Shown here: positions 5,521 through 63,219 of the stretch, piece by piece
Position numbering within the stretch: position 1 is the first letter of the stretch
Layout: each line of letters opens with the position of its first letter
Assembly (NCBI GenBank): GCA_963790305.1
Contig: CAWBOC010000005.1
Coordinates: forward strand, 192,001-256,000
DNA: 64,000 bases
Origin: an uncultured Gemmatimonadaceae bacterium
GTDB taxonomy: Bacteria > Gemmatimonadota > Gemmatimonadetes > Gemmatimonadales > Gemmatimonadaceae
Direction: 5' to 3'
The notes under the pieces: generated by a model
Databases searched by the model: none
What the model saw: the letters and a program-made list of their open reading frames with translations, nothing else
What the model was told of the DNA's origin: nothing
Made by a program: the position numbers and the translations under genes

Positions 5521-5809
5521 GGAGAGGTGCCTCGGCAAGGGGGCGCGCCCGCCGCGGCCTAACGACTGGCCGCGGAGGGGCGCGAGGGAAAAGTGCTTCT
5601 CTCCCTCGACGACCGAGGCGGGCCTGCCGTCTCCGAACCTACACCGGCTGTGCGCGCGATCACCCGAAGTGAGGCCAATGTGACCGTCATTTCGCCCGCG
5701 CCCGGACGGGTGTCGAGTTTCTTCGCGGCGTCGTGGGGACCGCCCAAAATGGGCTGTCGAGCCATCTCGAAGGGATACTTTCCGGACGTGGATCGCCGTA
5801 TGCTTCGGC

Positions 5810-6370
5810 GTGACCATTCTCGTCGCCATCGCAGCCGGCGTCGTGCTCGCGGCCTCCGCGGGACTCCGCGCATTCGTCCCCCTGTTCGCGGTCGGCGTCG
5901 CGTCGCGCACGTTTGGATGGGATGTCGCGAACGAGATGCAGTGGCTCGCGTCGAATACCGCGCTCACCTGCTTTGGAATCGCGAGCGCACTCGAGGTGGC
6001 CGCTGACAAGATCCCCGTCGTCGATCATGCGCTCGACGCCGTCCACACCATCATCGGTCCGATCGCTGGTGCGCTCGCCGGTCTCAGCGTCTGGCTGCAC
6101 TTCCCCCCGACCGTTGCCGCCGTCCTCGCGATCGCCGTTGGCGCGCCAGTCGCCGGGGGCGTTCATCTCCTGGCGGCTACCACGCGGGTGAAGAGCTCGG
6201 TCGTAAGTGGTGGAACGCTCAACCCCGTCGCGAGCACCGTGGAAGATGGCGTCACCCTTGGGGCGATCCTGATCGCCATCCTCGCGCCAGTGCTCGCGCT
6301 GGTGCTGGCAATCGTGTTGTTCGTGGTCGTCGGCCGCTACATCGTAAAGCGGCGCCGCTCACCCGCCTAA
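5810..6370 (+). CDS. DUF4126-family membrane protein
   Basis: LAASAGLRAFVPL, LEVAADKIPVVDHALD, NPVASTVED motifs. Confidence 0.88.
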   Translation: MTILVAIAAGVVLAASAGLRAFVPLFAVGVASRTFGWDVANEMQWLASNTALTCFGIASALEVAADKIPVVDHALDAVHTIIGPIAGALAGLSVWLHFPPTVAAVLAIAVGAPVAGGVHLLAATTRVKSSVVSGGTLNPVASTVEDGVTLGAILIAILAPVLALVLAIVLFVVVGRYIVKRRRSPA

Positions 6371-7540
6371 CGCGGCCGAGGCGACGCGCGCGGCCTCGGC
6401 CAGCACTGCGCCGCCGACAAAGATGCTGTCGTCCGCGGCGTAGAATCGCGGAGTGTGTGCGGGAATTGCTTCCCCACCGGCTTCGCATGCACCCACCCGC
6501 AAGAAACAGCCGGGCATCCGCTCCATGTAGTAGGCGAAGTCCTCAGCGGCCAGATTCACGAAGCCAAGCGGAACAACGGATTCGGCGCCCACCACCGCGA
6601 TCGCCGCGCTTCGTGCCCAGCTCGCCGCCTCGATGGGGTTGACGATCGGCGGTGGTCCGAGCTCGACGGTCACCTGCGCCTGGAGGCGATGGGCCGAGGC
6701 CACGGCGTCAGCGATGCGCCGGAGCTCATCGTGCAGGAGCCGCCGCGTGTCGGGATCCGTCGCTCGCAGCGTTCCCGTCATCATCGCCCGATCCGGGATG
6801 ATGTTCGACGCGCTGCCGGCGTTGATCGTCCCGACCGTCACCACCGCCGCGCGTGATGGATCCAGCCGGCGGGAGACGATGGTCTGCAACGCGCCGATCA
6901 GCGCGCCCGCGCCGACAATGGGATCAGCGGCTTCATGCGGGCGGGCGGCATGGGCCCCGCTGCCGAGCAGCTCGATCTGGAAAGTGTCGGCCGACGCAGC
7001 CAGCGGGCCTGCTTCCGCCACCACCGTCCCCACCGGAAAGCGCCGGTCGACGTGCGCTCCGAAAATCGCCGACACGCCATCCAGCGCTCCGCTGTCCATC
7101 ACGGCGCGTGCTCCTTTCCCAGTCTCCTCCGCCGGCTGCAGCACGATGAGGACGTCTCCCGCGGCGGGGCGCTCGCTGAGCAGGTGCGCGGCAGCCACTG
7201 CCCACGTCGCATGCACGTCGTGCCCACAGGCGTGCATGACGCCGGCATTTCGAGACGAGTACTCGAGGTTGGTGTTCTCGTGAATGGGGAGGGCGTCAAT
7301 GTCGCCGCGAATCGCGACCACGGGCGCTCGCGCATCGCGACCGGCAATGCGCGCGACGACACCAGTGCCCGCGACGCGATGGAGCTCCTTGGGACGCACC
7401 GGTGCCAGCGCGTCGTTCAGCCGGTTCGCCGTCCGCTCCTCACGAAACGCCAGCTCAGGGTCGCGATGAATTTCTCGGCGAAGCGCGATCAGCGCCGCGT
7501 GCACATCGGGCGCGAACAGCCTCGCGACCGTGTCGATCAC
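6359..7540 (-). CDS. M20D-family amidohydrolase (aminoacylase/hippuricase-like)
   Basis: RREIHRDPELAFRE, RGDIDALP, MHACGHD, QPAEE, AEDFAYY, H.P.F. Confidence 0.93.
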   Translation of the reverse strand: MIDTVARLFAPDVHAALIALRREIHRDPELAFREERTANRLNDALAPVRPKELHRVAGTGVVARIAGRDARAPVVAIRGDIDALPIHENTNLEYSSRNAGVMHACGHDVHATWAVAAAHLLSERPAAGDVLIVLQPAEETGKGARAVMDSGALDGVSAIFGAHVDRRFPVGTVVAEAGPLAASADTFQIELLGSGAHAARPHEAADPIVGAGALIGALQTIVSRRLDPSRAAVVTVGTINAGSASNIIPDRAMMTGTLRATDPDTRRLLHDELRRIADAVASAHRLQAQVTVELGPPPIVNPIEAASWARSAAIAVVGAESVVPLGFVNLAAEDFAYYMERMPGCFLRVGACEAGGEAIPAHTPRFYAADDSIFVGGAVLAEAARVASAALGG

Positions 7541-8890
7541 TCGCGAGAGCGCGAGCGCCAGAGGTAGAACGCCGGCACGCCAAGCAGGACCAGGCCGAGC
7601 CCGACCGCCGCCCGCCCGGGCTGGCTCACGATCGTGTTGAGCACGATCGCCGCCGCCGAGGCAACGAAGAGGAGTGGCGTCACCGGATACCCAGGCGTGC
7701 GAAACGGGCGTGGCAAATCGGGCTGCTTACGCCGGTACACGAAGATCGCCAGGCCACCGAGCGCGTAGAAAAGCCAGCCGCTGAAGACGACGTAGGTCAA
7801 CAATTGCTCGAACGTCCCCGTCGCGGCGAGGAGCATCGCCCACACCGAGCTGGCGACGATCGCCAGCGCCGGCGTGCCGAATCGCGGATGCACCTCAGCC
7901 AACTTGGCAAAGAACACGCGGTCACGCGCCATCGAGAAGTAGAGACGGGGCGTGGTCAGAGTGAGGCCGTTCGCCGCGCTGAACATCGACACGAGGATGA
8001 CGGCCGCGATCACCTTGCCGGCGGAGGGTCCGAGCACCGCGCTCACGGCGTCCGCCGCCACTCGCTCGCTCGCCATCACCCCCGTCGTCCCCAGCGCCGC
8101 GAGGTAGGCGACGTTGGCCAGCAGATACAGAACGATGAGGAGCACGCGTACCGAGCACGAGCGCGCGCGGAAGCGTTCGCTGCGGATCGATCGCCTCGCC
8201 CGCGGAAAAGGTGACGTACTGCCACCCTTCGTACGCCCAGAGCACGGCGATCATCGCCAGCCCCACGCCGGCGAACAGCGAACCACCCGTCGCGCCGGCG
8301 ACGTCGGCCGCCGCGCCGGCGGCGGGCCATGTGCCTAACGCGAGCAGGAGGATGCTCATGACGACGATCGCCCCGGCCTTGATCGCGGTCGTGACGTTCT
8401 GAACGTCAGCGCCCTGTCGCGCGCCGCGGACGTTGACGGCCATGACGACCACCACCACGAGAACCGCTATCAGCTTCGCCACCAGGGGCGACACCGTCAC
8501 GAACTGCTGAAGGTATCGCGTGAACGCAACCGCGAGCGTCGCCACCGAGCCGGCGCCGAGCACGAAAAACGACGTCCACCCATAGAGGAACGCCGGAAGC
8601 GGACCGAACGCATCGCGGATGTAGAGATAGAGACCGCCCGCGTCCGGCTTCGCCGCTCCCATCTCCGCGAAGGTGAGCGCACCGAGCAGCGAGAGCACAC
8701 CGGCAAAGACCCAGACCGCGAGGGCGAGGCGCACGTCGCCACCGGTCTGCCGGAGCACCGGGCCCGGCACGAGGAAGATCCCCGATCCGATCACCGTGCC
8801 GACCACGATCAGGATGAGATCGCGCGGACGTAGCGTGCGCCGGAGGGATCGTGCGGGCTCGTCGGCGGCGCGCGGCGCCGGAGATGTCAT
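7537..8890 (-). CDS. APC-family amino acid permease (frameshift near 8147, probably a sequencing indel)
   Basis: GTVIGSGIF, AEMGAAKPDAGG, WAYEGW in one frame; YLLANVAY, HPRFGTP, PFRTPGYP in the next. Together they make one full-length permease. Confidence 0.88.
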
Positions 8891-10569
8891 GGGGTCGCTT
8901 GTGTCGGTGGCCAGCCCTGCCCCCGCAGCACGTGCCCGGGCTTCGCTCCGGTGTGCCGCGCGCGATCAATCACGACGACGCCGTTGACCAGCACCCAGTC
9001 GATCCCGGTCGGAAATTCAGTCGGTCGCTCGTACGTCGCGCGATCGTCGAGCGCGTCGAGATCGAAGATCGTCACATCGGCCCAGGCGCCGACGCGAATC
9101 ACGCCGCGGTCAGCGAGGCGCATTCGAGTCGCGGGCCAGGACGTCATCTTCCGCACCGCCTCCTCGAGCGAAAGCGTCTTCCTCTCCTTCACGTATCGCG
9201 CGATCACGCGAACATGATTGCCGAAGCTGCGCGGGTGCGGCAGTCCGGTCGCATCGGGAACGCCGACCTGCGCGACCGCTCCCGCGTCGCTGCCGATGCT
9301 CGTCCACGGGAAACGGAGAGCGGTCTCGATGTCGCGCTCGCTCATCATATGGTAGATCGCCATGACGCGGCCCTGCCCCTGCGTGACGAGATCCCACGCC
9401 ACGTCCGCCGGATCCCGCTTCGCCTCACGAGCGATCTGGGCGATCGTCTTGGTCTCATGCTTCGCGTTCGCGGGATTGCGCGCGTTGACCAGGACGATGC
9501 CCTCCCATCCGCCGGCTGCCTCGACGATGTTCCACCAGCCTGGAGAGCCGGTCTCGAGCTCGCGCTTGAGCCGCGCCCGTACATCAGGGCGTGCGAGTCG
9601 CGCGCGCAACGAATCCGCGCCGCCCTCGTGCGCCCAGCTCGGGATCGTTGCTTCGAGCCCCGTTCCGCCCGCGGTGTACACGTACATGTCGGCGGCCACA
9701 TCCACCCCTCGCGCGCGCGCCGCCTCGATCACCTGCCGCACCGAATCCATGAGGATTCCCCACCCGGGCCGATACGCGACCTTGAGGTGAAAGACCTCGA
9801 CCGGCATCCCCGCCCGCTCGCCGACCTCGATCGCCTCGCGCACCGCCTGCACGACTTCCTTGCCTTCACCGCGAATGTGGCTCGCGTAGATCCCACCGTA
9901 CTGAGCCGCCGTCTTACCGACTTCCACCAGCTCGTCGGTCGTGGTGTAGCTCGACGGGGGATAGATGAGCGCGGTCGTCATGCCCATTGCGCCGTTGCGC
10001 ATCGCGGTATCCATGATGGCGCGCATGCGCGCCAGCTCGTCCGCCGTGGGCGCCCGTGCCTGCCGCCCCAGCACCGCGACGCGCGTCTGTGTCTGGCTGA
10101 AATACGTGCCGAAGTTGATGCTGATCCCCTGCCGCTCGAGCGTCGCGAAGTATTCCGGAATCCCGGACGCTGGCACCGGCGTACCGCCCTCGCCACCGAT
10201 GGCGGTCGTCACTCCCATGCGAAGCTTGTTCTCGGCCAGCCCGTTCCGCGGCAGCACACTCCCCGACTGATCCATGACGTCGATCCAGCCCGGCGAGACG
10301 TATTTCCCGCGCGCATCGATCTCGGTGCGACCGCGCGCTTCCACCCTGCCGATTTCGGCGAAGCGCCCATTCGCGATCGCCACGTCGGCGAGGATCCAGG
10401 GATTCCCCGCTCCATCCAGCACCCGCCCGTTGCGGATGACGATGTCGTATTCCGTCGCCACGCGCGGCACCGGAACCACGTGTCCCGGAGTCGCCATCGG
10501 AGGCGCGCTCGCGCGCGTCGATGTACACGCCGCCGCCGTTAGGCAGATGAGGATGAGCGACCGCTTCAT
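8887..10569 (-). CDS. N-acyl-D-amino-acid deacylase (D-aminoacylase) family amidohydrolase, lipoprotein
   Basis: Lipobox AAAC; DIVIRNGRVLDG, YASHIRGE, VFHLK, GSDA, HPRSFG, GIDWVLVNG. Confidence 0.9.
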   Translation of the reverse strand: MKRSLILICLTAAACTSTRASAPPMATPGHVVPVPRVATEYDIVIRNGRVLDGAGNPWILADVAIANGRFAEIGRVEARGRTEIDARGKYVSPGWIDVMDQSGSVLPRNGLAENKLRMGVTTAIGGEGGTPVPASGIPEYFATLERQGISINFGTYFSQTQTRVAVLGRQARAPTADELARMRAIMDTAMRNGAMGMTTALIYPPSSYTTTDELVEVGKTAAQYGGIYASHIRGEGKEVVQAVREAIEVGERAGMPVEVFHLKVAYRPGWGILMDSVRQVIEAARARGVDVAADMYVYTAGGTGLEATIPSWAHEGGADSLRARLARPDVRARLKRELETGSPGWWNIVEAAGGWEGIVLVNARNPANAKHETKTIAQIAREAKRDPADVAWDLVTQGQGRVMAIYHMMSERDIETALRFPWTSIGSDAGAVAQVGVPDATGLPHPRSFGNHVRVIARYVKERKTLSLEEAVRKMTSWPATRMRLADRGVIRVGAWADVTIFDLDALDDRATYERPTEFPTGIDWVLVNGVVVIDRARHTGAKPGHVLRGQGWPPTQATP

Positions 10570-11759: not shown

Positions 11760-11804
11760 GGCAAGCTAGTTAGGAGATCTGGACGATGAGGTGCCCATAG
11801 GAGA

Positions 11805-11964: not shown

Positions 11965-12012
11965 CTAGTTCTCCGGCATTGTGCGGTCATCTGCGGCTCC
12001 CGACTCAAGAAG

Positions 12013-13539
12013 TCATCGTGGCGCTGCTGCACGCGTGAACGTGATCCCGAACGCGCGCACCGAGGTCACACCTCCCGTGCCGTCCGGCGCGAAGACGACA
12101 AGAGAGGGGTCCATCCGCACGTCGTCCCATTTGGCCTGGAACGTGTCGTAGTGCCAATGCGTCAACGTGCCGATGCGACCGCGTCCGAACGCGAAGTGCA
12201 GCGCATCGTTCCGAACGCTGACCACTGCGTTGCCATAGGTCTGGTTGGTATATGTCCCCGCGTAGCGGTCGAGCGGCACACTCGGCCGCGTATCGGCGAC
12301 GCGGCGCTGGATCTGATCCCGCCGGGCCGAGTCCGCCTGCCGCTCCAGCCCGGAGTAGAGGGCGAGTAGCTCCTTGCTCCAGTCGCGGGGTGCGTTGCCG
12401 CTGTACATGTCGAACACGCGATACATGAGCGCGTGTCGAAGCTCCGCGTGGTCGAGGTTCGCGAGCACGTACACGCCCAGCCGCCGGTCGGGGATGAGTC
12501 CGATGAGTGCGCTCATGCCATCGATGCTTCCGGTGTGCATCGCCACCGCCTGACCCTGATAGTCGTGGAGAAACCACCCGAGCCCATAGGTGAAGAAATG
12601 CGGGCGCACGAGCGGCATCGTCGAGTACATCTCGCGCGGCGCGACGACCTGGGGCGACAGGAGCTCGCGGAACGTTGCTTCGCTCAGCAGTCGTTTTCCG
12701 CCGACGCGACCGCTGTCGAGGATGAACCGAGCCCACTTCGCCATGTCGCCGACGCTCGACCAGACTGAGCCAGCCGGTCCGACCGCATCGACCGGACGGT
12801 TCGTGATCGGGCGGATCGTGTCGGCAATTTCTCCGTGCGGCGTAGCGATGTTGGATTGGCCATCGAGCGCAGCGAGCGTTGCCTCGGTCGCCTTCATCCC
12901 CAGTGGCTCGAAGATTCGCGTGCGGAGGAATTGGGCCCACGGCATTCCCGATGCCGCGGCAATGACGTCTCCCGCCACGGCATACATGATGTTCTGGTAA
13001 ACAAACCGCGAGCGGAGCGAGTACGCGGGAGCGAGCGTCGCGACGCGGCGCATGATCTCCTCCGCCGGGTAGCCAGCGCTGGCCCACAGCTGATCGGCGT
13101 TGCCGAGCCCACCCCGGTGGGTCAGGAGATCACGAACCGTCAGCTCGCGCGTGACGTACGGATCGCCGACACGGAACCCGGGAAGGTATGTGATGACCGG
13201 CTCGTCCCACCGCACCTTCTTCTCATCGACCAGCATGCCTAACGCAACAGCCGTCATCGCCTTCGTCGTCGAGCCGATGGCGAACCGTGTCCCGGCGTCG
13301 ACCGCGGCGGGTTTCCCGAGCTCGCGAACACCGTAGCCCTTGGCGAAGACGACGCTGTCATCCTTGACGACCGCGATCGCAAGTCCCGGAATCCGCCACT
13401 CGGCGACTGCGCGGGTGATGTAGGCGTCGAGACCGTTCAGGGCTACCGGCGGGCCGGCGCGCTGCGCATTGGCGGACGCTGCGGCGACGATGAGGGGAAC
13501 TGCGGCGAGAACGCGCGCGAGTGGTGGCATTGGTCGCAC
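12013..13539 (-). CDS. Secreted serine hydrolase (beta-lactamase/PBP family) with DUF3471-like C-terminus
   Basis: Signal peptide; SxxK (GSTTK), YQN, HTG; C-terminal YAGTY...YG. Confidence 0.92.
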   Translation of the reverse strand: MRPMPPLARVLAAVPLIVAAASANAQRAGPPVALNGLDAYITRAVAEWRIPGLAIAVVKDDSVVFAKGYGVRELGKPAAVDAGTRFAIGSTTKAMTAVALGMLVDEKKVRWDEPVITYLPGFRVGDPYVTRELTVRDLLTHRGGLGNADQLWASAGYPAEEIMRRVATLAPAYSLRSRFVYQNIMYAVAGDVIAAASGMPWAQFLRTRIFEPLGMKATEATLAALDGQSNIATPHGEIADTIRPITNRPVDAVGPAGSVWSSVGDMAKWARFILDSGRVGGKRLLSEATFRELLSPQVVAPREMYSTMPLVRPHFFTYGLGWFLHDYQGQAVAMHTGSIDGMSALIGLIPDRRLGVYVLANLDHAELRHALMYRVFDMYSGNAPRDWSKELLALYSGLERQADSARRDQIQRRVADTRPSVPLDRYAGTYTNQTYGNAVVSVRNDALHFAFGRGRIGTLTHWHYDTFQAKWDDVRMDPSLVVFAPDGTGGVTSVRAFGITFTRAAAPR

Positions 13540-14586
13540 CTACTTGAGCTTGGCCACGAGCCAGTCGACCGTCACCCCGATCACCTCCGGCTCGACGCTG
13601 TTTCGCACCAGACGCGAATACCCGCGGGGGAAGCCGACGGGATCGTAGACGAAGAGATGGTTGAGATCCGGGAATACGCGGAAGGTCACGTCAGTCATGC
13701 CACCGGATTTGATCGCCGCCGCGAGCTCGGCCGTCTGTTCCGGCGTGACCTGTTGGTCGGTGGCGCCGTTGAGCAACAGCGTCGGCGTCTTCACCTGCCG
13801 CGCGACGGCGAGCACGTCGTGATCGAGAAAGAACTTCATCCACGCATTGGACGCTCGCAGCGAGTCGATGCGCGCGGGGATTCTCCCGAGCGCCGAATCC
13901 AGCTTCGTCCCTTTGAGGGACGTGTCGCCGCGAGCCAGGTTGGCCAACTGATACTCGAGAATCCTTCGCCCGCCCCATGACGGCCCCGCCAGCAAGGCCA
14001 TCGCGCGCAGCTGCGGCTCTTTGACGGCGACCAGAGGACCGATCAATCCGCCCTCGCTGTGGCCGAGGATTCCCAGCCGGCTCGCATCGATCTCCGGTCG
14101 CGTGCGCAGGTAGGCGAGCCCGGCGCGAATGTCCTCGGCGAAGTCGGCCGACGTTGCCGTCGAGTGATTTCCTTTGGAGGCGCCGGTTCCACGATCATCC
14201 ATACGCAGCACGGCGATGCCGCGCCGTCCCAACGAGTCGGCGAACTGCCGGAAGGGGCGATACCCTGGCAGCGGCGTGAGCGTCTCATCCCGATCCTGCG
14301 GCCCAGACCCCGTCATGGTGACGACTGCCGCCACCTTGGCCGTCGCGCTTGCGCTGTTAGGCAGCGTCAACGTTCCGGCCAGCGTGTGCCCCATGGGCGT
14401 GGGGATGGTGACGTCGTGCGCCGTATAGGGCGCGCCCAGCGGGGCGGAATAATCCTTTGGCGGCGTGCGACGCGCCGTGTCCGGTCGCGACGCGGTTCGT
14501 GCCGTGTCGGCGGCCGGCCGACCCTGTGCCGGCAGTGCACTCGCCATCAGGATCGAGCCAACGAAGACAGTGGCTACACCGCGCAT
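13540..14586 (-). CDS. Secreted alpha/beta-fold hydrolase (serine aminopeptidase S33-like)
   Basis: LAGTLTLP, GSGPQDRDE, DDRGTG, GHSEGG nucleophile elbow, D.QV, LNHLF. Confidence 0.9.
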   Translation of the reverse strand: MRGVATVFVGSILMASALPAQGRPAADTARTASRPDTARRTPPKDYSAPLGAPYTAHDVTIPTPMGHTLAGTLTLPNSASATAKVAAVVTMTGSGPQDRDETLTPLPGYRPFRQFADSLGRRGIAVLRMDDRGTGASKGNHSTATSADFAEDIRAGLAYLRTRPEIDASRLGILGHSEGGLIGPLVAVKEPQLRAMALLAGPSWGGRRILEYQLANLARGDTSLKGTKLDSALGRIPARIDSLRASNAWMKFFLDHDVLAVARQVKTPTLLLNGATDQQVTPEQTAELAAAIKSGGMTDVTFRVFPDLNHLFVYDPVGFPRGYSRLVRNSVEPEVIGVTVDWLVAKLK

Positions 14587-14620
14587 GACGAATCTCCGAA
14601 GTCCGTTGTGGTGAAAACGC

Positions 14621-23051: not shown

Positions 23052-24172
23052 CCGCGCCCCACCGCTCCGATTCCGCCGCACCGGCGACACCGCTCGCTCT
23101 GCGCAACGTCGCACAGTACGAGGAGGCGGCGCGCGCGCTGCTGACTCCGGCGGTCTACGATTATTACGCGGGCGGCGCCGAGGATGAGCTGACGCTGCGG
23201 TGGAACGAGGCGGCGTTCCGGCAGTTCGCTCTGCGCCCGCGAGTGCTCGTCGACGTAAGCCGGATCGACCCGTCGGTCGAGCTGTTAGGCGATCGACTCG
23301 CGTTTCCGGTGCTGCTCGCCCCAACCGCCTTCCAGCGTCTCGCGCACCCTGACGGCGAGCTCGCGACGGCGCGCGCCGCGGCGGCGGCAGGAACGGTGTT
23401 CGTCTCGAGCACTCTGTCGACGTTCACGATCGAGGAGATCGCGGCGGCGACCCAGCGGCTCTGGCTCCAGCTCTACGTCTTCCGCGATCGAGCCATAACC
23501 CGGTCGCTGGTCGAACGCGCCGAAGCTGCCGGCTGCCAAGCGATCTCGCTGACGGTGACGGTGCCGGTTCAGGGAAACCGCGAGCGCGACGCGCACAACC
23601 GTTTCGCGCTTCCTCCGGGGATCGAGATCGCGAACTTCACCGGACTGCGTCAGTCGCGCCTTCCGGATGCAAATGCGTCGCGCCTCAATGCGTTCATCGA
23701 CGAGGAGTTCGATCCGTCGCTCTCCTGGAGGGACATCGAGTGGCTTCGCTCGATCACGAAGCTTCCGATCGTGCTGAAGGGGATCATGGCGCCGGAGGAT
23801 GGCGTGCTCGCGGTCGAGCACGGCGCCGCGGCGGTGGTCGTTTCGAACCACGGTGGACGCCAGCTCGACAGTGGCGAGCCGACGCTGTTCGCGCTGCCCC
23901 GGATCGCCGATGCGATTGGCGGTAGAATCCCTGTCCTGATGGACGGAGGAGTGCGCCGCGGGACCGACGTCGTGAAGGCGCTGTGCCTGGGCGCGACGGC
24001 AGTGATGATCGCACGACCCTATCTGTGGGGTCTCGCTATCGGCGGGCAGCGCGGGGTGGCGGATGTGCTCGGGTTGCTGCGCGCCGAGGTGGAGCGCACA
24101 CTTGCCTTGCTCGGCCGCCCGACGATCTCCGCGCTCGAGCGAAGCGCGATCGGACCGTCGCCGGACGCCTGA
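23048..24172 (+). CDS. FMN-dependent alpha-hydroxy-acid oxidase/dehydrogenase
   Basis: YDYYAGGA, WLQLY, VLKG, VSNHGGRQLD, DGGVRRGTDVVKAL. Confidence 0.94.
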   Translation: MTAPHRSDSAAPATPLALRNVAQYEEAARALLTPAVYDYYAGGAEDELTLRWNEAAFRQFALRPRVLVDVSRIDPSVELLGDRLAFPVLLAPTAFQRLAHPDGELATARAAAAAGTVFVSSTLSTFTIEEIAAATQRLWLQLYVFRDRAITRSLVERAEAAGCQAISLTVTVPVQGNRERDAHNRFALPPGIEIANFTGLRQSRLPDANASRLNAFIDEEFDPSLSWRDIEWLRSITKLPIVLKGIMAPEDGVLAVEHGAAAVVVSNHGGRQLDSGEPTLFALPRIADAIGGRIPVLMDGGVRRGTDVVKALCLGATAVMIARPYLWGLAIGGQRGVADVLGLLRAEVERTLALLGRPTISALERSAIGPSPDA

Positions 24173-28768: not shown

Positions 28769-28846
28769 CATTCCGGCGCGCGCGGCTGCGACGTTACAGG
28801 TGAGCTCGCGCGTTAGGCGTCGCAAAGAGGCCGTTCGGAGGCGCGT

Positions 28847-45756: not shown

Positions 45757-46894
45757 GCGGATCTCGCTGCGCGAGATCCGGCTCCCGCTGCGCGAGCCTT
45801 TCCGGATCTCGAGTGGGGTGGTCGACGAGCGTCGCATCGCGCTCCTCGAGATCGTCGACGCCGACGGGGTCGCCGTATGGAGCGAGTGTGTCGCCGGCGA
45901 GCACCCGAACTACAGCTCCGAGACGATCGATACCGCATGGCACGCGATCACCGAGTGGGTTGCCCCGCGCGTGCTCGGGCGGTCGTTCAGCGATGTGCGT
46001 GACGTCTTCCCGGCACTCGAGCGCGATTTCCGCGGACACCTGATGGCGAAAGCCGCGGTCGAGATGGGAGTTTGGATCCTGGCCGCCGAACGGCTCGGTA
46101 CCTCGCTGGCCAATCTGCTCGGCGGCACCCGATCCCAGATCGCCACCGGCATCTCGCTCGGCATCCAGCCCTCGCCCGAGGTGCTCGTAGAAAAAGCGCG
46201 CGCGGCGTTGGCGTTAGGCTATCGCAAGGTGAAGATCAAGATCCAGCCGGGCGCCGACATCGCCTACGTCGGCGCCGTCCGCGTGGCGCTCGGGCCAACG
46301 GCGCCGCTGATGGCCGACGCGAACAACGCCTACACCATCGCCGACGCCGAGCACCTCGCCCGCCTCGACGCCCTCGAGCTGATGATGATCGAGCAGCCGT
46401 TTGCGTTCGATGATCTCGTGCAGCACGCCGCCCTTCAGCGCCGCCTGACGACGCCGATCTGTCTCGACGAGTCCATCACCTCGGTCGACCGCGCGCGCGA
46501 CATGGCGGCGCTCGGCAGCGGACGCATCGTCAACATCAAGCCGGGACGCGTCGGAGGATTCACAGCGTCACTCGCCATTCACGACTTCTGCGAGACGAAG
46601 GGGATTCCCGTCTGGTGCGGCGGTATGCTCGAGAGCGGTATCGGACGCGCCTGCAACGTGGCGCTGGCGTCGCTCCGCAACTTCACCAAGCCGGGCGACG
46701 TGAGCCCGAGTGCGCGGTACTGGGAGCGGGACATCGTGACGCCGGAATGGACGATGAACGCCGACGGAATGGTTCGCGTCCCGCTCGACCGGCCCGGCCT
46801 GGGCGTGGATGTGGACCTGGGACGCGTGGACGATCTCACCGTCCGAGAAGCGAAGCTCACGGCTCCGAACCGGGCGGCGACCGCTCGAGTTTAG
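45743..46894 (+). CDS. menC: o-succinylbenzoate synthase / N-succinylamino acid racemase (enolase superfamily)
   Basis: KIK, DAN, IEQP, LDE, NIKPGRVGG, WCGGMLESG, PGDVS; resembles the NSAR/OSBS subfamily. Confidence 0.88.
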   Translation: MLRVERISLREIRLPLREPFRISSGVVDERRIALLEIVDADGVAVWSECVAGEHPNYSSETIDTAWHAITEWVAPRVLGRSFSDVRDVFPALERDFRGHLMAKAAVEMGVWILAAERLGTSLANLLGGTRSQIATGISLGIQPSPEVLVEKARAALALGYRKVKIKIQPGADIAYVGAVRVALGPTAPLMADANNAYTIADAEHLARLDALELMMIEQPFAFDDLVQHAALQRRLTTPICLDESITSVDRARDMAALGSGRIVNIKPGRVGGFTASLAIHDFCETKGIPVWCGGMLESGIGRACNVALASLRNFTKPGDVSPSARYWERDIVTPEWTMNADGMVRVPLDRPGLGVDVDLGRVDDLTVREAKLTAPNRAATARV

Positions 46895-49409: not shown

Positions 49410-50746
49410 TGCGCGTGAGCAGCACCCGTTCAGGGCTCTCGTCGTCGCTCGTGCGCCGGCCGGCTCTCGCGCTAGTCGCGACACTCCTGCTGAGCCCGTC
49501 GCAAGCCAGGTCGCAGCACGAGCATCCCCCAGCAGCGCCGTCCGCCCCTGTCGATCACTCGATGCACGGCATGATCGCTGGTGCGCTCGGCATCTCGCAC
49601 GCACGTATGGGATCGGGCACGACGTGGGTTCCCGACGTCACCCCTATGCGCGCGATCCATACGACGTGGGGCGACTGGTCGGTGATGCTCCATGGTGTCG
49701 CCTTTCTCCAGTACGATCGCCAGTACTCGCGCCGCGGCGACGATCAGGTTGGCCTGATCGACTGGGAGATGTTGATGCTCATGCGGCGACTCGGCCCCGG
49801 GCTTCTGCACTTGCATGCGATGACGAGTCTCGAGCCGTTCACCATCGGCGCCGAAGGCTACCCCTTGCTGCTTCAGACCGGCGAGACGTTCGAGGGGCGT
49901 CCGCTCGTCGACCGCCAGCATCCGCACGATCTCATCATGGAGCTGGCAGGAATGTACGAGCAGCCGGTCTCCGACAATCTCGCCCTCTCGGTGTATGCAG
50001 GCTTTGCCGGCGAGCCTGCGATGGGACCCGTTGCTTTCATGCACCGGCCATCGGCGCAGAGCGATCCGCTCGCGCCACTCGGCCACCATTGGCAGGACGC
50101 TACCCACATTACTTTTGGCGTCGTCACCGGCGGCATCTTCTCGCGACACTGGAAGCTGGAGGGCTCGTGGTTCAATGGCCGCGAGCCGGATGAGAATCGC
50201 TGGAACCTCGATCTCCGGCCACTCGACTCGTGGGCGGGTCGCCTAACGCTGAATCCAACACAGCGCCTGAGTCTGTCGGGATGGTATGGCTTTCTCGAGA
50301 GCCCGGAAGCCAGCGACCCCGATGAGTCGACGCGGCGCTTCGGAGCCTCGCTCCTCTTCGCGCACCCAGGCGTCGGCGGAGGCTGGTCGACGATGCTGCT
50401 CTGGGCCGCCAACGACCACGGTCACGGAGCGGAGCCCAGCTTCGCCGCCGAGAGCGATCTCCAGGTGAGGGGCCACAGTGTCTTCGCGCGCTACGAGTTC
50501 GTGCGCAAGAGCGCCGACGACCTGGTCATCGAGGGCGCGGGAGACGCGGACTTCCCGATTCATTCCTTCGTCGCCGGATACGCCCGCGACCTGGTGAGAA
50601 CGGAATCCGCGGCCATCGGCGCTGGCTTTCGAGCATCCATCAACTGGATTCCGGCATCACTCGCGGAGTCGTACGGAACGCGGAGGCCGGCCGGGATCGC
50701 GGTCTACCTCAGGGTCCGCCCGCCGGATGTGATGCTCGCGCCGTAG
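49409..50746 (+). CDS. Hypothetical exported protein, probable outer-membrane beta-barrel with His/Met-rich N-terminus
   Basis: Signal peptide, QHEH..DHSMHGM, GSGTTWVP, DRQHPHD, HHWQDATHI, alternating beta-strand pattern. Confidence 0.7.
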   Translation: MRVSSTRSGLSSSLVRRPALALVATLLLSPSQARSQHEHPPAAPSAPVDHSMHGMIAGALGISHARMGSGTTWVPDVTPMRAIHTTWGDWSVMLHGVAFLQYDRQYSRRGDDQVGLIDWEMLMLMRRLGPGLLHLHAMTSLEPFTIGAEGYPLLLQTGETFEGRPLVDRQHPHDLIMELAGMYEQPVSDNLALSVYAGFAGEPAMGPVAFMHRPSAQSDPLAPLGHHWQDATHITFGVVTGGIFSRHWKLEGSWFNGREPDENRWNLDLRPLDSWAGRLTLNPTQRLSLSGWYGFLESPEASDPDESTRRFGASLLFAHPGVGGGWSTMLLWAANDHGHGAEPSFAAESDLQVRGHSVFARYEFVRKSADDLVIEGAGDADFPIHSFVAGYARDLVRTESAAIGAGFRASINWIPASLAESYGTRRPAGIAVYLRVRPPDVMLAP

Positions 50747-51494
50747 CTGCCACCCCACCCTGCCGAAGATAGTCGGCGAAGTCGTCGGGAAGCTCGCTGG
50801 CGATGATCGCCTGTGCCGCCGCCTCGACGTCATAGTCGACTCTCACAATCTCGGCGTTGACGCTGCCCGCCTCGACATCGAGCACGACGTAGCTCGCCCG
50901 CCAGTCGCCATCCTTCGGCCGGCCGACCGAGCCTGTATTGACGTAGTGCACGCCCTCCACGACGCGATGCCACGGCACGTGCGTGTGACCGAAGCACACG
51001 ACATCGCCGGCGCGCGCGCCGAGCCCGGAGCCCATCTTCTCGAGGAACGCGTCGGAGCGATCTTGATGGACGTACACGGTGTTGAGCGTCTGGTTGCCGT
51101 GAACGAGGGTCACGGTCGGCCCGGCGACGTGGCCACCGTTAGGCCGGATGTCGATCCGAAACGGTAGCCCACCCAGAAACGCCTTGGTCCGCGGTGAGAC
51201 GTGCGCGCGCGTCCACGCATAGGAGACGTGCGACAGCTCCTCCTGCCGCGGATCTTCGTACTGGCACCCACAGTGCTTGTAGTCGGCCGCGACCGTGGAG
51301 TCATAGTTTCCCGCCACACCCGAGATGCCGGCCGCGATGAGCGTCTCGACGACCTCGTTTGGCCATGGTGCATATCCGACGAGGTCGCCCAGGTGGTACG
51401 TCGCATCTACGCCCTCGCGCATCGCGACGTCGCGCAGCACCGCCTCCAGCGCCGGCAGGTTGGCGTGAATGTCGGAGATGAGAGCGTAGCGCAT
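50709..51494 (-). CDS. Metallophosphoesterase (calcineurin-like, YfcE-type) in ars operon
   Basis: SDIHAN, GDLVGY, GNYD, GHTH, NTGSVG; internal CGC. Confidence 0.9.
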   Translation of the reverse strand: MRYALISDIHANLPALEAVLRDVAMREGVDATYHLGDLVGYAPWPNEVVETLIAAGISGVAGNYDSTVAADYKHCGCQYEDPRQEELSHVSYAWTRAHVSPRTKAFLGGLPFRIDIRPNGGHVAGPTVTLVHGNQTLNTVYVHQDRSDAFLEKMGSGLGARAGDVVCFGHTHVPWHRVVEGVHYVNTGSVGRPKDGDWRASYVVLDVEAGSVNAEIVRVDYDVEAAAQAIIASELPDDFADYLRQGGVAATARASHPAGGP

Positions 51495-55192: not shown

Positions 55193-56520
55193 TCACGAGC
55201 GGGACGGCGCCTCCAGACGTGCCGGCTCGAGCCGCGGGACGAGGAGATGAATGACGGCCAGCGCGGTGACGTACGCCAGCCCGCAAACGATGAAGATCGG
55301 CACGTAGTCGTTCCCCGTCGCCTCCAGGACGCGGCCGGTCGCACGCTGAAAGAGCATTCCCCCCATCGCACCGCCGAATCCGCCGAGCCCCACGACCGAC
55401 GCGACGGCGCGCCGTGGAAACATGTCGCTGGCGGTCGTAAAGAGATTGGCCGACCACCATTGGTGCGCGGCAGCCGCCACGCTGACGATCGAGACGGCCA
55501 CCCACAGGCTGCCCGCGTTAGGCGCCAGCATCGTCGGCACGATCAGCAGCGCGGCAATGAGCATCGCGGTTTTGCGCCCGCGGTTCACCGTCCAGCCGCG
55601 CTTGATCAGCGCGCTGGAGAGCCATCCGCCGCCCACGGAGCCGACATCAGCCACGAGGTAGATGACGACCAGCGGCATCGCGATCTGGGCAAGCCGGATG
55701 CCGTACTCCGCGTCCAGGAATTTCGGCAGCCAGTACAGGTAGAACCACCAGATCGGGTCGGTCATGAACTTTCCGATCATGAACGCCCACGTCTGGCGAT
55801 GGCGGAGAAGGCTGCTCCAGCGAACCGCCTCCGTCGATTCCAGTGGATCGCTCCGGATGTAGGCGAGCTCCGCGGTCGTCACCTTCGGATGCACCTCCGG
55901 CGGGCGGTACATCCAGAGCCAGAACGCCAGCCAGACGAACCCGAGGGCACCGGTGACGATGAACGCGAGCGGCCATCCCCAGGTCAGCGCGATCCACGGA
56001 ACGATCAGCGGCGTGAGAATGGCGCCGACGTTGGTGCCAGCATTGAAGATCCCCGTCGCGAGCGCGCGCTCCTTCCGCGGAAACCACTCGGCCACCGCCT
56101 TGATCGCTCCCGGGAAGTTGCCCGACTCGCCGAGGCCTAACGCGGCGCGCGCGACGGAGAAGCCGGTGGCCGTTCGCGCGAAGGCGTGCCCAATCGCCGC
56201 CAGCGCTCCACGCGACGATCGAGAACGCGAACCCGAGGCGAACGCCGAAGCGGTCGAGGAGGCGCCCCATGCCGAGGAAGCCGAATGCGTAGGCGAGGCT
56301 GAACCACGAGACGATGTCGCCATACTGTGTCTCGGTCCATCCGAGCTCGCGCGAGAGGGTCGGCGCGAGGATGCCGAGCACCTGGCGGTCGATGTAGTTG
56401 ATCGTCGTCGCCGCGAACAGCAGCGCGCAGATCGTCCATCGATATCCGAGCCATCGCCCCGGAGCGGGGGCGCGCCGCCTCGGCTGCGCTCGGCATCGCT
56501 GGTGCTCCCGCGACCGTCAT
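55193..56520 (-). CDS. exuT: MFS hexuronate transporter (frameshifts near 56450 and 56203)
   Basis: [63 protein letters not shown] across three frame segments; ATGA overlap with kdgK. Confidence 0.85.
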
Positions 56521-57546: not shown

Positions 57547-58226
57547 GAACGGGAGGCTCCCGCTGGCGCGCGCGGCGATTCTGTATCACCGCGTGCTGCG
57601 CTGACCGCACGCGTCGTCTCGTCGCGAATGCGCTCGAAGGCTTTCGCCGCGATCCAGTCCGCCGGTGCCATCCACGACCCGCCGCAGGCGATCACCCGGT
57701 CGAACGCCAGGTAGGATCGGAGGTTGTCGGCGTTGATGCCACCGGTCGGCACGAACCGCATCATGCCGTAGGGAGCCGCGATCGCTTTCAGGTACTTCAG
57801 CCCCCCAATCGGCTCCGCGGGAAAAAACTTGACCATCGTTAGGCCGAGTGAGAGCGCGGCCTCGATGTCGGTGGGCGTGCATACGCCGGGGCACACGGGA
57901 ATGTCGTGCTCGAGACAGTGCTCCACGACCGCGGGATTGAACCCCGGTGCCACGATGAACGTCGCGCCGGCACTTCGCGCCTCGCGCGCTTGAGCCACGG
58001 TGAGCACCGTACCCGCCCCGAGGAGCAGCTCGGGCGCGGCGGCGCTCATGCGCCGCAAGGCCTCCCCCGCGCCCGCCGTCCGAAAGGTGATTTCGGCGCA
58101 GGGAAGGCCGCCGTCGATAAGTGCCCTCGCCAGCGGACCCGCGGCCGATGGATCATCGATCACGATGACCGGGACGATCTTGAGCCGGGCAAGTTTGTCA
58201 GCGAGTGGGGAGTTGCCGAGCGTCAT
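57543..58226 (-). CDS. eda: KDPG/KHG aldolase
   Basis: EITFRT, GAGTV, PG..TP, KFFPAE, PTGGI, GGSW. Confidence 0.93.
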   Translation of the reverse strand: MTLGNSPLADKLARLKIVPVIVIDDPSAAGPLARALIDGGLPCAEITFRTAGAGEALRRMSAAAPELLLGAGTVLTVAQAREARSAGATFIVAPGFNPAVVEHCLEHDIPVCPGVCTPTDIEAALSLGLTMVKFFPAEPIGGLKYLKAIAAPYGMMRFVPTGGINADNLRSYLAFDRVIACGGSWMAPADWIAAKAFERIRDETTRAVSAARGDTESPRAPAGASRS

Positions 58227-59817: not shown

Positions 59818-61359
59818 TCAGTGGGTGACGTCGCCACGCCGCGAAGTGCTGTCGGAGGAAGCGATCGTGCTCGCGGGAGGTAGCGCGTCCAGCTTGTAGG
59901 CGCGACGCGGGAGGTCATAGGCGAGGGCGCGAGCCATGTCGCGCCCATCCTGCACATCAATCACGTGACGAGCGACGAGCCCGGCGAGCCAGTTCGCGTC
60001 GATGCGTCTCGCGAGGTCGTGCCGGGCCGGGATCGAACAGAAGGCCCGCGTGTCGTCGTTGAACCCGACGGTGTTGTAGATCCCCGCGGTTTCGGTGACG
60101 GATTCGCGGAACCGCCGCATCCCTTCGATCGAATCGTGAAACCACCATGGCGGTCCGAGCCGCACCGACGGGTAGTGCCCCGCGAGTGGCGCCAGCTCGC
60201 GAGCGTACGTCGACTCGTCCAGCGTGAACAGGATGAGAGTGAGCCGCGAGTCGCTTCCGTGCTCGTTGAGCAGGGCGTGGAGGTTCCGGGTGTACTCGGT
60301 CGCGACCGGGATGTCGCCGCCGACATCGGGGCCGAACCGCGTCGCCAGCGACGCATTGTGATCCCGCAGTGATCCCGGGTGGAGCTGCATGACCAGACCG
60401 TCGTCGATCGACATGCGAGCCATCTCGATGAGCATGTGCGCCTGGAAACGACGCTGATCCTCCTCCGTCGCGTCTCCCCGCAGGGCCCGCTGGAAGATCG
60501 CCTCGATCTGGTCGTCGGGGAGCAGCGCCGTGTAGGGCTCGACCACCGCGTGATCGGTGGATGTGGCGCCCATGGACTTGAAGAAGGATCGGCGCCGCTC
60601 GAGCGCTCGGCCGAAGGTATGTGAGTCCTGGATACTCGCACCATCAATGCGGGCGAGAGCGTCCACCTCGTCGCGCCACGCTGGACTGGCGATGCGAAGC
60701 ATCGCGTCGGGTCGAAAGCTGGGAAGGACGACTCCGCGCCATCGCGACGCGCGGAGCACACGGTGATGGTCCAGCGTATCGGTCGCGGCGTTGGTCGTCG
60801 TGAGCACCTCGATACCGAAGCGCTCGAACAGCGCCCTCGGGCGATACTCCGGAGACGTCAGTCGCTCCGTCAGCTCATCGTAGACGAACTGGGCGCTCTC
60901 CCCGTCGAGGCGGGTGTCGACGCCGAACACCACCGCCAGCTGGTAGTCGAGCCACGCCGCGGTGGGGGTGGCGCGAAACAGGAAGTATCGCTCGGCGAAC
61001 CGCTGCCACACGGTGCGTGGGTCCTGCTCGACCCGCGTGCCGTCCCGCGTCGGAATGCCTAACGCCTCCAGCGGCACGCCCTGCGAGTACAGCATGCGAA
61101 AGATGTAGTGGTCGGGCGTGATCAGCAGGGCGGTCGGTTCGGGGAACGCGCGATCGTCGGCGAGGAGAGCCGCGTCGACGTGACCGTGGGGACAGATCAG
61201 CGGAAGGTCTCGCGTCTCGTCGTGGAGGGTACGCGCGAGCCGCCGGACGGTTGGATCCGGGTCGAAGTAGCGGTCCTCGTGCAGGACGAGGGGGGCACGC
61301 GCGGCATGCGGCGCAGCGCGGGGCCCGTCCGATGTTACGCCCATCGGGATGTCAGCCAT
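59818..61359 (-). CDS. uxaC: Uronate (glucuronate) isomerase
   Basis: PHGHVD, PDHYIFRMLYSQG, QLHPG, GPPWWFHD, GFNDDTRAF.SIPARHD. Confidence 0.95.
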   Translation of the reverse strand: MADIPMGVTSDGPRAAPHAARAPLVLHEDRYFDPDPTVRRLARTLHDETRDLPLICPHGHVDAALLADDRAFPEPTALLITPDHYIFRMLYSQGVPLEALGIPTRDGTRVEQDPRTVWQRFAERYFLFRATPTAAWLDYQLAVVFGVDTRLDGESAQFVYDELTERLTSPEYRPRALFERFGIEVLTTTNAATDTLDHHRVLRASRWRGVVLPSFRPDAMLRIASPAWRDEVDALARIDGASIQDSHTFGRALERRRSFFKSMGATSTDHAVVEPYTALLPDDQIEAIFQRALRGDATEEDQRRFQAHMLIEMARMSIDDGLVMQLHPGSLRDHNASLATRFGPDVGGDIPVATEYTRNLHALLNEHGSDSRLTLILFTLDESTYARELAPLAGHYPSVRLGPPWWFHDSIEGMRRFRESVTETAGIYNTVGFNDDTRAFCSIPARHDLARRIDANWLAGLVARHVIDVQDGRDMARALAYDLPRRAYKLDALPPASTIASSDSTSRRGDVTH

Positions 61360-61469: not shown

Positions 61470-61492
61470 TGGTTCAACCAGGATAGAAAGCC

Positions 61493-62017
61493 CTAGGGCA
61501 AGAACCCCCGCGCAAAGCCACCGGGGAAGGCGTCCGAATGGAAATTGACGTAGAAGCTCGCCGGGTCGCGCAGCAGCTCGGCCAGCGCGGCATCGTGGCT
61601 GGTGAAGTGCGCGTTCGTGACGAAGATGCCCTGCTGGCGGAACTCGAGATGCTGGTCAGTGAGATTGAGGTCCGTCCCAACGGGGTTCGACAGCCACCAG
61701 ATCACCGGCCCTGTCGCGGCGCCCGGGTTCAGGTGGTGAATGTGGCCGAAGCGGACGCTCTCATCACCCTTGTTGTTGATGATGACCGTGGACTCGATGG
61801 TCCCATCGGCCAGGATCATGATCTGGGCGTGTCCTTTCGATTCCGAGGTCGAGGTGGGGACCTCGAGCTCCGAGCGCATCTGCGTGTTGAATACTATCGG
61901 GGGCGCTCCGTCACTCCCGACGGAGAGCGAAGCCGCGAAGCGCTCCGGTCCGGTCGAGGGCTGATCGGCGCACGCGGCTACAGCAACGACAGCCATAAGT
62001 GCCTGCCAATGTCGCAT
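61493..62017 (-). CDS. CHRD domain lipoprotein
   Basis: Lipobox VAAC; EVP, HIH, GPV, FYVNFHS..FPGG..RG.L. Confidence 0.87.
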   Translation of the reverse strand: MRHWQALMAVVAVAACADQPSTGPERFAASLSVGSDGAPPIVFNTQMRSELEVPTSTSESKGHAQIMILADGTIESTVIINNKGDESVRFGHIHHLNPGAATGPVIWWLSNPVGTDLNLTDQHLEFRQQGIFVTNAHFTSHDAALAELLRDPASFYVNFHSDAFPGGFARGFLP

Positions 62018-62261
62018 AGAACCTTCCTGGTCGAGGGGATCGGGAAGGGTCGTAGTCCCTCGTCGTCCCGAAAAGTGCGTTGCGGCGAACGTAGAGTTCG
62101 GTGGGGCGGACGGTCCGACCGGCACCGCCGGCGTTTTCGGGAGGCATTCGCCACAGAATTCAGGGATTCAGAACACCCGCGCGTACGACCTCCCGGTTAT
62201 TGTCTGAATTCTGATTTCGTATTCTGACATCTGACGTCTTTGCCGTTCTCCCAAAGCAAGA

Positions 62262-63219
62262 ATGGACAACCTCGCCCACACCCTGACTGGACTCGCGATC
62301 GCCGAGGCCGGCCTTCGCCGCAAGACGGCCCTCGGCGCCACGACGCTCGCGATCGCCGCCAACCTCCCGGACATCGACGCATTCATCTATTTCGTCGGCG
62401 ACGGCATCGACGCGCTCGCCTTTCGTCGCGGGTGGACGCACGGAATTCTCGCGATGCTCGTGCTCCCCGTGCTCCTCGCCGCACTCATGCGCGGGGCGAG
62501 CCGGCTTCGCAAACCGGCTGCTGACGCCCCCGCCACGAGCTGGCGATGGCTCATCGCGCTCTCGGCGATCGGGGTGTGGTCGCACCCGCTGCTGGATTTG
62601 CTCAACACGTACGGCGTGCGCCTCCTGATGCCGTTCTCGAATCGATGGTTCTACGGCGACACGCTGTTCATCATCGATCTCTGGCTCTGGCTTGCGCTTC
62701 TCGTCGGCATTCTGCTGTCGCGGAGGCGCACTTTGCGACTCACCGCCAACCCGGAACGTCCGGCTCAGACTGGCGATCGCGCTCGTTGGCGTGTACGTCG
62801 TGTGCATGGCCATATCCTCACGGGTGGGCCGCGGTATCGTCGACCAACAGGCGAGCGGGGAGCGCGCCGACCGCATCATGGTCTCTCCGATTCCAGTGAC
62901 ACCCTTTCGTCGCGTCGTGGTGCGCGATCTGGGCGATCGCTACGAGACCGGAGCGCTGGCGTTAGGCGGGGCGACGGCGTATCGACCAACGGGCCAGACA
63001 CCGACGGGACGCGACAGCGATCTGGCGGCGGCTGCCGCACGAACGCCCGACGGCGCCGCGTTCCTCTCGTGGTCCCGCTTTCCGCGGTTCGCCGCCGAGC
63101 CCTCGAGTGATGGGCTGTCGGTACGAATCAGCGACATGCGCTACGCGGATGTCCGCGGCCGTGGATGGGCATCGGTGGTAGTCCGTATCCCTGCCGAGGA
63201 CCGCCTAGGGGATCAGTGA
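62262..63219 (+). CDS. YdjM-like metal-dependent membrane hydrolase (frameshift near 62767)
   Basis: MDNLAHTL, NLPDID, RGWTH, SHPLLD..N.YG..LL.PF. The C-terminus (WSRFP, DMRY) is in a shifted frame. Confidence 0.85.

Follow-up and report, generated by a model that had tools for sequence, protein, structure and literature searches.

An octamer, CGTTAGGC, that is scattered through a 64,000-nucleotide stretch of DNA from an uncultured Gemmatimonadaceae bacterium is a genome-wide DNA-level signal. The stretch, here called the window, covers positions 192,001 to 256,000 of contig CAWBOC010000005.1 (GenBank assembly GCA_963790305.1; G000:C5:192001-256000 in our numbering of genomes and contigs), and its source genome, G000, comprises 4.31 Mb in 13 contigs at 66% G+C. 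The word, which differs from its own reverse complement and is thus non-palindromic, occurs 18 times in the window, 10 times on the plus and 8 times on the minus strand, against a mean of 1.07 and a maximum of 4 in 100 dinucleotide-preserving shuffles of the window. The heptamer GTTAGGC occurs 23 times (13 on the plus and 10 on the minus strand; mean 1.95 and maximum 6 in the shuffles). An earlier sequence-only reading of the window had reported 18 copies of the octamer and 23 of the heptamer; every one was recovered at its place, and the hand estimate of two to three expected octamers that came with them agrees with the order-0 composition.

Across the whole genome there are 855 copies (419 on the plus and 436 on the minus strand), for which order-0, order-1 and order-3 Markov models predict 166, 67.9 and 44.3, respectively. 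At 13-19 times the Markov expectation, the word ranks first of all 8-mers of G000 under both order 1 and order 3. It is flagged by these lower orders and missed by a maximum-order Markov ranking, because its own sub-words are enriched. The 20 bases on each side of the genomic copies carry no information, barring a weak preference for G/A at position +9, and the word is therefore not part of a longer repeat. Single-letter deviations from it are concentrated at the first and last letters. Some one-letter neighbours appeared to be depleted, and we considered this as a sign of directed conversion; the idea was rejected because the word itself raises what the Markov models predict for them. A full-text search, whose coverage did not extend to subscription journals, found no publication that names the octamer as a genomic signal.

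The target of selection or drive is the DNA word rather than the protein. The sequence-only reading had proposed this for selection, and the evidence comes from reading frames, synonymous shuffles, conservation between relatives and codon changes in rpoB and rpoC. By our own crude gene calls (3619 genes covering 83% of G000, with 17% uncalled), the word occupies all four stop-free frames, the other two frames holding a stop codon: 328 of the 855 copies read xCG-TTA-GGC, 142 xGC-CTA-ACG, 150 xxG-CCT-AAC-G and 56 xxC-GTT-AGG-C, with 179 outside or at the edge of called genes. The three coding contexts described earlier (TTA-GGC, CTA-ACG and CCT-AAC) are thus real, although their number has to be raised by a fourth, GTT-AGG. 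When synonymous codons were shuffled within the genes of G000 (30 shuffles), the word was expected 12.7 times (maximum 22) in one orientation and 27.7 times (maximum 45) in the other, against 386 and 292 observed, or about 30-fold and 10-fold enrichment. The same is seen from the side of the rare leucine codons, with 330 of 1055 TTA codons (31%) falling in NCG-TTA-GGC and 142 of 1660 CTA codons in NGC-CTA-ACG. Neither of the two outcomes that the sequence-only reading had said would refute it, a count close to that of a codon-aware null and TTA/CTA codons no commoner inside the word than elsewhere, was thus obtained. Where the amino acid sequence permits the word, it is used most often for Pro-Asn before a codon starting with G (17.1%), then for [APST]-Leu-Gly (10.3%), [RGSC]-Leu-Thr (7.9%) and Val-Arg before a codon starting with C (2.3%). 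Placement along genes is uniform and density is equal within and between genes. Hairpins around the non-genic copies are no stronger than in random non-genic DNA.

The copies are also strongly conserved. We aligned about 105 kb of G004 and about 90 kb of G008, two genomes of the same genus with 83-87% DNA identity, to G000, so that the test rests on some 200 kb. The word was identical at 15 of 16 and 22 of 23 sites, respectively, against a background of 29% and 33% identity for all aligned 8-base windows. Conservation is graded with the quality of the match: exact copies were kept in 37 of 39 cases, CGTTATGC in 8 of 12, TGTTAGGC in 4 of 7, CGTTAGGT in 4 of 9, and CGTTACGA/C/G taken together (CGTTACGN) in 1 of 13. 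The depletion in islands for which the sequence-only reading had suggested looking is not seen, since blocks of G000 that do not align to G004 or G008 carry 0.30 copies per kb against 0.19 per kb in aligned blocks; accessory DNA is therefore not depleted in the word.

How copies come about is illustrated by rpoB and rpoC, whose codons we aligned for ten genomes. Genomes of different genera that are rich in the word hold it at the same rpoB and rpoC codons, for example as GCG TTA GGC in G000, G240, G296 and G303, and in genomes that are poor in the word, G292 included, those codons are CTC or CTG. Most gains need at least two changes, such as CTC to TTA, and some copies come from an amino acid change, TTC (Phe) or GTA/GTG (Val) having turned into TTA. 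Copies thus arise in spite of codon preference, in some cases by altering the protein, and are then conserved far better than silent sites nearby. Common descent may account for the shared rpoB and rpoC positions, or else the fact that few codons can accommodate the word. In G000, rpoC itself (C9:~421700-426027) reads as two overlapping open reading frames (ORFs) of 1001 and about 540 residues, and a ResIII-type helicase at C13:131102-133281, 53-65% identical to its counterpart in the Verrucomicrobiota genome G418, is likewise split in two; these are frameshifts or assembly errors.

Variant words help to define what is recognized. TGTTAGGC, GGTTAGGC, CGTTAGGT/G/A, CGTTATGC and CGTTACGC were each found 8-27 times in 184 kb taken from rich genomes and not once in 99 kb from poor ones; the core is therefore GTTAGG, with the outer letters and the sixth letter looser. 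Put in terms of the octamer, the recognition core GTTAGG has a preferred C at either end, and letters 1, 6 and 8 of the word tolerate some change.

The arrangement of the copies along the chromosome is without polarity. Orientation relative to the sign of the local GC skew was 445 versus 410 in G000, and 432 versus 411 in 1.5 Mb with positive GC skew among the 2.0 Mb of G418 that were covered. Close neighbours are rare: gaps of less than 100 bp between neighbouring copies were seen once in G000, where an exponential model expects 17, gaps of less than 300 bp 11 times (49.9 expected), and gaps of less than 1 kb 108 times (155 expected). An 80-kb sample of another relative, G016, shows the same tendency. 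The DNA-level force that creates and preserves the word thus acts on duplex DNA, has no polarity, works against close neighbours and is graded with match quality. At the other end of the distribution, a single motif-free gap of G000 exceeds chance, a 54-kb region without an exact copy at C6:288265-342699 (about 0.01 such gaps expected by chance), which has normal G+C, near-word hexamers and 46 ordinary-sized genes.

The sequence-only reading had thought of a lineage-specific signal. This description oversimplifies: within the order the trait is patchily distributed, one genome of a rich genus is without it, and it recurs in a second phylum. We used the count of the reversed word in the same genome as the enrichment control. 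Among 41 relatives counted, all nine genomes of the genus of G000 have 382-1006 copies against 211-366 for the control, other genera of its family range from 6 to 6360 (the maximum, in G016, being about one per 0.8 kb), and a second family contributes three rich genomes. Of 401 genomes sampled evenly from the phylum, 16 reach at least twice the control, 13 of them in family f1 and three in one genus of family f2, with G218 at 1.7 times; none of the 135 genomes from families f4-f12 is enriched. Rich genomes belong to scattered genera in three Gemmatimonadales families. Within genus g44, G240, G296 and G400 have 3479-4141 copies and G292 has 66. An RpoB tree mixes rich with poor genomes at starred nodes and requires no fewer than three changes of state, G303 grouping with G095 and G292 falling within the clade formed by G000, G240 and G296. 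Four unpublished genomes (G015, G085, G203 and G124) enter these tallies as word-poor rows only.

The second phylum is Verrucomicrobiota. When 185,579 species genomes were searched for pairs of copies separated by 400-430 bases, at least 127 stretches were obtained. Among the 80 matches listed, 25 bear a Gemmatimonad- title, 30 a title with Chthoniobacterales, Verrucomicrobiae, Verrucomicrobiota or Spartobacteria, and 25 come from other taxa. The word was counted 2136, 2110 and 3510 times in three Verrucomicrobiota genomes, whose controls are 247, 321 and 357; one Acidobacteriota and one Nitrospirota genome from the other taxa are not enriched over control. None of 200 further, evenly sampled Verrucomicrobiota lies above control, so that in this phylum, too, the trait is limited to a narrow clade. 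A 400-kb sample of G418 has the word on both strands (109 versus 114); T stands at position -1 in 83% of these 223 copies, and purines follow the word. The trait therefore comes and goes among relatives, and one word is common to two phyla.

From these properties we infer that the word is recognized, as duplex DNA, by a sequence-specific factor indifferent to strand, gene and frame, and that this factor is a mobile DNA-binding function. Our tentative preference, by analogy with known systems, is for an uptake- or exchange-type self-recognition word with a horizontally moving reader. In this model, DNA carrying the word would be favoured when DNA passes between cells, recombination would spread and restore copies as a molecular drive, possibly together with selection, and the gene for the reader would itself be mobile. 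A mobile reader gene would explain both the on/off trait in close relatives and the same word in two soil phyla. We rank such a drive first because under it copies would build up gradually, be present in accessory DNA too and decay after a loss.

The sequence-only reading had named uptake sequences and the highly iterated palindrome HIP1 as known analogues, and we judge them the closest. Like DNA uptake sequences (DUS) and uptake signal sequences (USS), the word is short and non-palindromic, has hundreds to thousands of copies on both strands, lies in genes in any frame and between genes, shows no replichore skew, is conserved between species and comes in one-letter "dialects", T-extended in Verrucomicrobiota and with edge variants elsewhere. 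Unlike them, it has only eight informative positions and no inverted pairs at terminators. The USS properties in this comparison are common background, and we know of no USS receptor; those of DUS are as given in an excerpt of PMC3630211. In contrast to DUS, no ComP-type receptor was found, the distribution of the word is patchy and not along the family tree, and its core is common to two phyla.

Several further observations weigh against an uptake or exchange word. To our knowledge, no competence phenotype has been described for Gemmatimonadota or Verrucomicrobiota. The density in G000, one copy per 5 kb, is below that of the classical uptake sequences; G016, however, reaches one per 0.8 kb. 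The short-gap deficit is weak in the Verrucomicrobiota sample. The word is the integron core site, which an uptake function leaves unexplained. A search with the ComP_DUS family (PF16732) gave nothing over the cut-off in G000, G240, G418, G292 or G095, and the ComEA-type match in G000 is weak and partial. In favour of uptake, parts of its machinery are encoded: DprA and secretins were found in all five genomes examined, six type IV pilin-like genes are present in G000, and ComEC was found in 23 of 23 rich and 17 of 17 poor genomes of a candidate panel of Gemmatimonadales, in which the genomes are related rather than independent samples and the lack of a hit in an incomplete assembly does not amount to absence. 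ComEC, DprA and secretins are thus equally present in poor genomes and therefore uninformative either way. Strong relatives of a FimT/GspH-like minor pilin were found in only 8 of 23 rich and 2 of 17 poor genomes. Finally, DUS dialects follow family phylogeny according to the same excerpt (PMC3630211), whereas the trait here is patchy, down to the 66 copies of G292 in a rich genus. As a separate observation on these pilins, G000 has a minor pilin cluster at C3:167446-169001 that includes two paralogous GspH/FimT-like pilins, whose closest relatives outside the genus are in rich genomes of family f3 at 38-40% identity; the copy in the poor genome G032 has an internal stop.

The on/off trait among close relatives offers natural contrasts for finding the reader. 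In the panel of 23 rich and 17 poor genomes, the integron integrase, Vsr, ComEC, an Eco57I/type IIG-like enzyme, the PF02384 and PF00145 methyltransferases and PDDEXK_3 nucleases were all tried as readers or drivers, and none tracks the trait; the PDDEXK_3 nucleases occur in family f1 irrespective of status and are absent from rich genomes of families f2 and f3. The correlation with competence genes, methyltransferases or a tyrosine recombinase that the sequence-only reading had suggested seeking is thus not seen for ComEC, PF02384, PF00145 or the integron integrase. Two rich and two poor genomes had suggested that rich genomes are without restriction-modification, and this failed on 40 genomes. 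We also compared the proteome of G000 with the first 2.0 Mb of G418, which is half of that chromosome. The 877 proteins with a match spanning more than 60% of their length had a median identity of 36%. Among the best 150 hits, 146 lie within one locus; 133 of these are stop-free and of 40-700 residues, and the 107 that were scanned against Pfam are nearly all housekeeping or metabolic proteins, with no convincing common reader among them.

That the word matches the integron core site, as the sequence-only reading had remarked, suggests a different kind of reader. An excerpt of PMC3053210 gives this core, which bounds cassettes, as GTTRRRY, a consensus that GTTAGGC fits. The word could accordingly be a half-site for a tyrosine recombinase of the integron-integrase type, or a relative of one, and its copies R-box-like duplex sites comparable to attI or attG. 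Cross-phylum conservation of such a recognition would explain two phyla with one word, and an integron integrase that passes the family cut-off is encoded in G000 and in each of the three rich Verrucomicrobiota genomes. An excerpt of bioRxiv 10.1101/2022.09.11.507474 describes integrases that can insert cassettes at duplex genomic sites, which would make such sites usable; the attG consensus published there is only GWT, which speaks against such a link. In the panel, 15 of 23 rich genomes have an integrase over the cut-off, as do 12 of 17 poor ones, and there is therefore no association with the word. In the richest genome, G016 with its 6360 copies, the integrase gene is broken into three pieces.

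The integron of G000 itself bears on both sides. A complete chromosomal integron lies at L029:9912-19250 (G000 C9:694912-704250), with intI at C9:694984-695919, at least eight attC sites of 130-138 bp on the same strand as intI, and 13 copies of the repeat family. The outer boxes of its attC sites are GCAGAAC/GTTCTGC (6 of 8) or GCATAAC/GTTATGC (2), which depart from GTTRRRY and are not the scattered word, and the prevalent GTTCTGC is not enriched genome-wide (1.07 times). The variants CGTTATGC and CGTTAGGT are enriched 3.7 and 6.4 times, and enriched variants do correspond to real attC R' boxes, GTTATGC in G000 and GTTAGGT in G418, where two attC-like sites end in the latter. The scattered copies of G000 do not have the surroundings of a cassette boundary: they have no inverse-core (RYYYAAC) partner at attC distance and no excess of hairpins, they lack cassette spacing, and they sit in long conserved genes such as rpoB. 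An attC site is an imperfect palindrome of 57-141 bp downstream of a cassette gene, whereas the whole of G000 offers just one inverse-oriented pair of the octamer, at 177 bp. Insertion sites in rpoB and rpoC would be hazardous, with no evident route by which they might accumulate.

In word-poor relatives the octamer does appear as the repeated end of probable cassette arrays. Same-strand arrays with a spacing of about 500-600 bp occur in G027 (C95, C43 and C80), G025 (C3), G378 (C2) and G147 (C51), and are probably large integron cassette arrays; those of the first three genomes speak for recognition by an integrase, the more so as the array on G027 C80 adjoins integrase fragments. At least 119 stretches of viral contigs carry the octamer, and most of the matches listed are same-strand arrays, which points in the same direction; no phage with scattered copies was recognized among the matches listed. 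One sequence filed as viral, L335 (IMGVR_UViG_3300049057_000028, 4448-14885), has 18 copies in 10.4 kb on both strands, where 0.26 are expected. They lie among ORFs of 100-250 residues, and L335 looks like two opposed cassette arrays rather than phage genes. In G421 (Acidobacteriota; C4 ~995350-1383429), pairs of octamers 25 bp apart on one strand are repeated in arrays, and this doubled site is perhaps a variant attC. Taken together, direct recognition of the scattered copies by an integrase seems unlikely to us. The identity of word and core site may hold the key to the reader or may be coincidence, and the presence of an integrase does not decide between them. More doubtful still is a combination of the two ideas, in which a mobile reader with R-box-like or integrase-derived recognition would have spread in soil Gemmatimonadota and Verrucomicrobiota, driving its site chromosome-wide and making it a shared cross-phylum "currency" of exchange.

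The word could instead be a self-mark for a horizontally acquired nuclease or helicase of defence or repair, similar to Chi without polarity, so that marked DNA would be spared or processed differently. Patchy gain and loss is typical of mobile defence genes, a shared system would place one word in two phyla, even spacing and strong site conservation would fit, and one copy per 5 kb is similar to the density of Chi in Escherichia coli. Nevertheless, the near-equal orientations in G000 and G418 show no replication-related bias, and a genome newly acquiring such a system would hold just 10-40 or so copies, as poor genomes do. No candidate system was found; the only pair examined was the 1021-residue Eco57I/type IIG-like protein of G000 and the 739-residue SNF2 helicase that adjoins it (L028:8022-13370; G000 C7:233022-238370), and a homologue of the former, its identity varying with relatedness, is present in all 40 Gemmatimonadales genomes, a breadth of conservation unusual for a gene of the restriction type. 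We consider such a mark about as improbable as recognition by an integrase.

Alternatively, the word could be the binding site of an abundant nucleoid or chromosome-organizing protein, with weak selection keeping the copies. The even spacing, the equal use of strands, the equal genic and intergenic density and the uniform placement along genes are all consistent with such a role. We know of no candidate protein, however, and rare codons forced into conserved proteins at thousands of sites imply a strong force per site. Repeated loss and gain among close relatives would also be unusual for a core chromosome protein, and we give this possibility the same low standing as the preceding two. An uptake or exchange word therefore stays ahead of the integrase, self-mark and nucleoid explanations, with methylation-directed repair disfavoured.

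In that last explanation, a methyltransferase together with biased short-patch mismatch repair would create and maintain the word, as modelled for highly iterated palindromes in an excerpt of PMC4390886. According to that excerpt, HIP1 is, like our word, an iterated octamer that is patchy in relatives, deviates at the outer letters and has no known function. HIP1 is a palindrome with matching methyltransferases, whereas the word is asymmetric and no methyltransferase family tracks it. The methylation signal that the sequence-only reading had listed among its options is weakened by the finding that four enzyme families (Vsr and the cytosine-5 (C5), N4/N6 and type-I-like methyltransferases) have no match in G000. 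PF01555, PF00145 and PF02384 have no match at all in G000 and G240, and the sole DNA methyltransferase candidate of G000 is the Eco57I-like protein of all 40 genomes. For cultured Gemmatimonadota, PMC3974934 (genome records CP007127-CP007130) describes three m6A motifs only, and the word is not one of them; this would argue against m6A or m4C at the word if a cultured strain were rich in it. In the panel, Vsr was found in 2 of 23 rich and 4 of 17 poor genomes, PF02384 methyltransferases in 8 of 23 and 10 of 17, and PF00145 (C5) methyltransferases in 4 of 23 and 5 of 17. A purely mutational process would not be expected to produce the short-gap deficit, nor does it sit well with gains that mostly require two or more changes. 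We regard this explanation as very improbable.

Like Chi, the FtsK-orienting polar sequences (KOPS) and the architecture imparting sequences (AIMS), the word is an over-represented octamer, at about one per 5 kb, that is conserved in core genes. Those sequences are strongly skewed towards the leading strand, and a function of the Chi or KOPS type is rejected, in line with what the sequence-only reading had argued from the window, because the word has no skew relative to replication.

Few genome-wide iterated words have a known reader. DUS, USS and Chi are among them, and they opened up self-recognition in transformation and the control of recombination. Here an identical word, which is also a canonical integron core site, is found in two unrelated, abundant and mostly uncultured soil phyla. 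Its reader, if found, would provide a handle on gene flow in soil bacteria and could expose a link between integrons and chromosome-wide DNA recognition.

Within the window, the copies illustrate each of the contexts seen in the genome. Those outside the crude gene calls are at 5557..5564, 8333..8340, 29279..29286 and 56135..56142 on the minus strand, and at 10537..10544 and 28811..28818 on the plus strand. The reading GCG TTA GGC (Ala-Leu-Gly) is found at 6365..6372, in sense in a minus-strand gene, and at 13237..13244 and 61057..61064 on the same strand, as well as at 19674..19681 and 46212..46219 on the plus strand; at 39391..39398 (minus strand) it is ACG TTA GGC (Thr-Leu-Gly). Copies antisense to genes read CGC CTA ACG (Arg-Leu-Thr) at 42082..42089 (plus) and 50241..50248 (minus), GGC CTA ACG (Gly-Leu-Thr) at 57837..57844 (plus), CGG CCT AAC GGT (Pro-Asn) at 51137..51144 (plus) and GCG CCT AAC GCG (Pro-Asn) at 55516..55523 (plus). 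The fourth frame is represented by GGC GTT AGG CGG (Val-Arg) at 62960..62967 on the plus strand. Among the edge variants, TGTTAGGC reads CTG TTA GGC (Leu-Leu-Gly) at 23284..23290 (plus) and 41150..41156 (minus), and lies antisense on the plus strand as CTG CCT AAC (Pro-Asn) at 14356..14362 and as GAG CCT AAC (Pro-Asn) at 43588..43594; GGTTAGGC at 20497..20503 (plus) reads CGG TTA GGC (Arg-Leu-Gly).

G000 contains other over-represented 8-mers. Under the order-3 model, AATGCGGA/TCCGCATT has 628 copies (6.4 times expectation), GCTAGAGG/CCTCTAGC 198 copies (15 times), CTAGAGGC 189 copies (15 times) and GGCGCTAG 271 copies (7 times); these are possibly further signals or parts of repeats. The window also holds, at 11808-11959, a palindromic repeat of about 115-150 bp that matches on both strands. 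It resembles a miniature inverted-repeat transposable element or a shared control cassette, and dozens of copies at 78-87% identity are found in G000, G004, G008 and G001.

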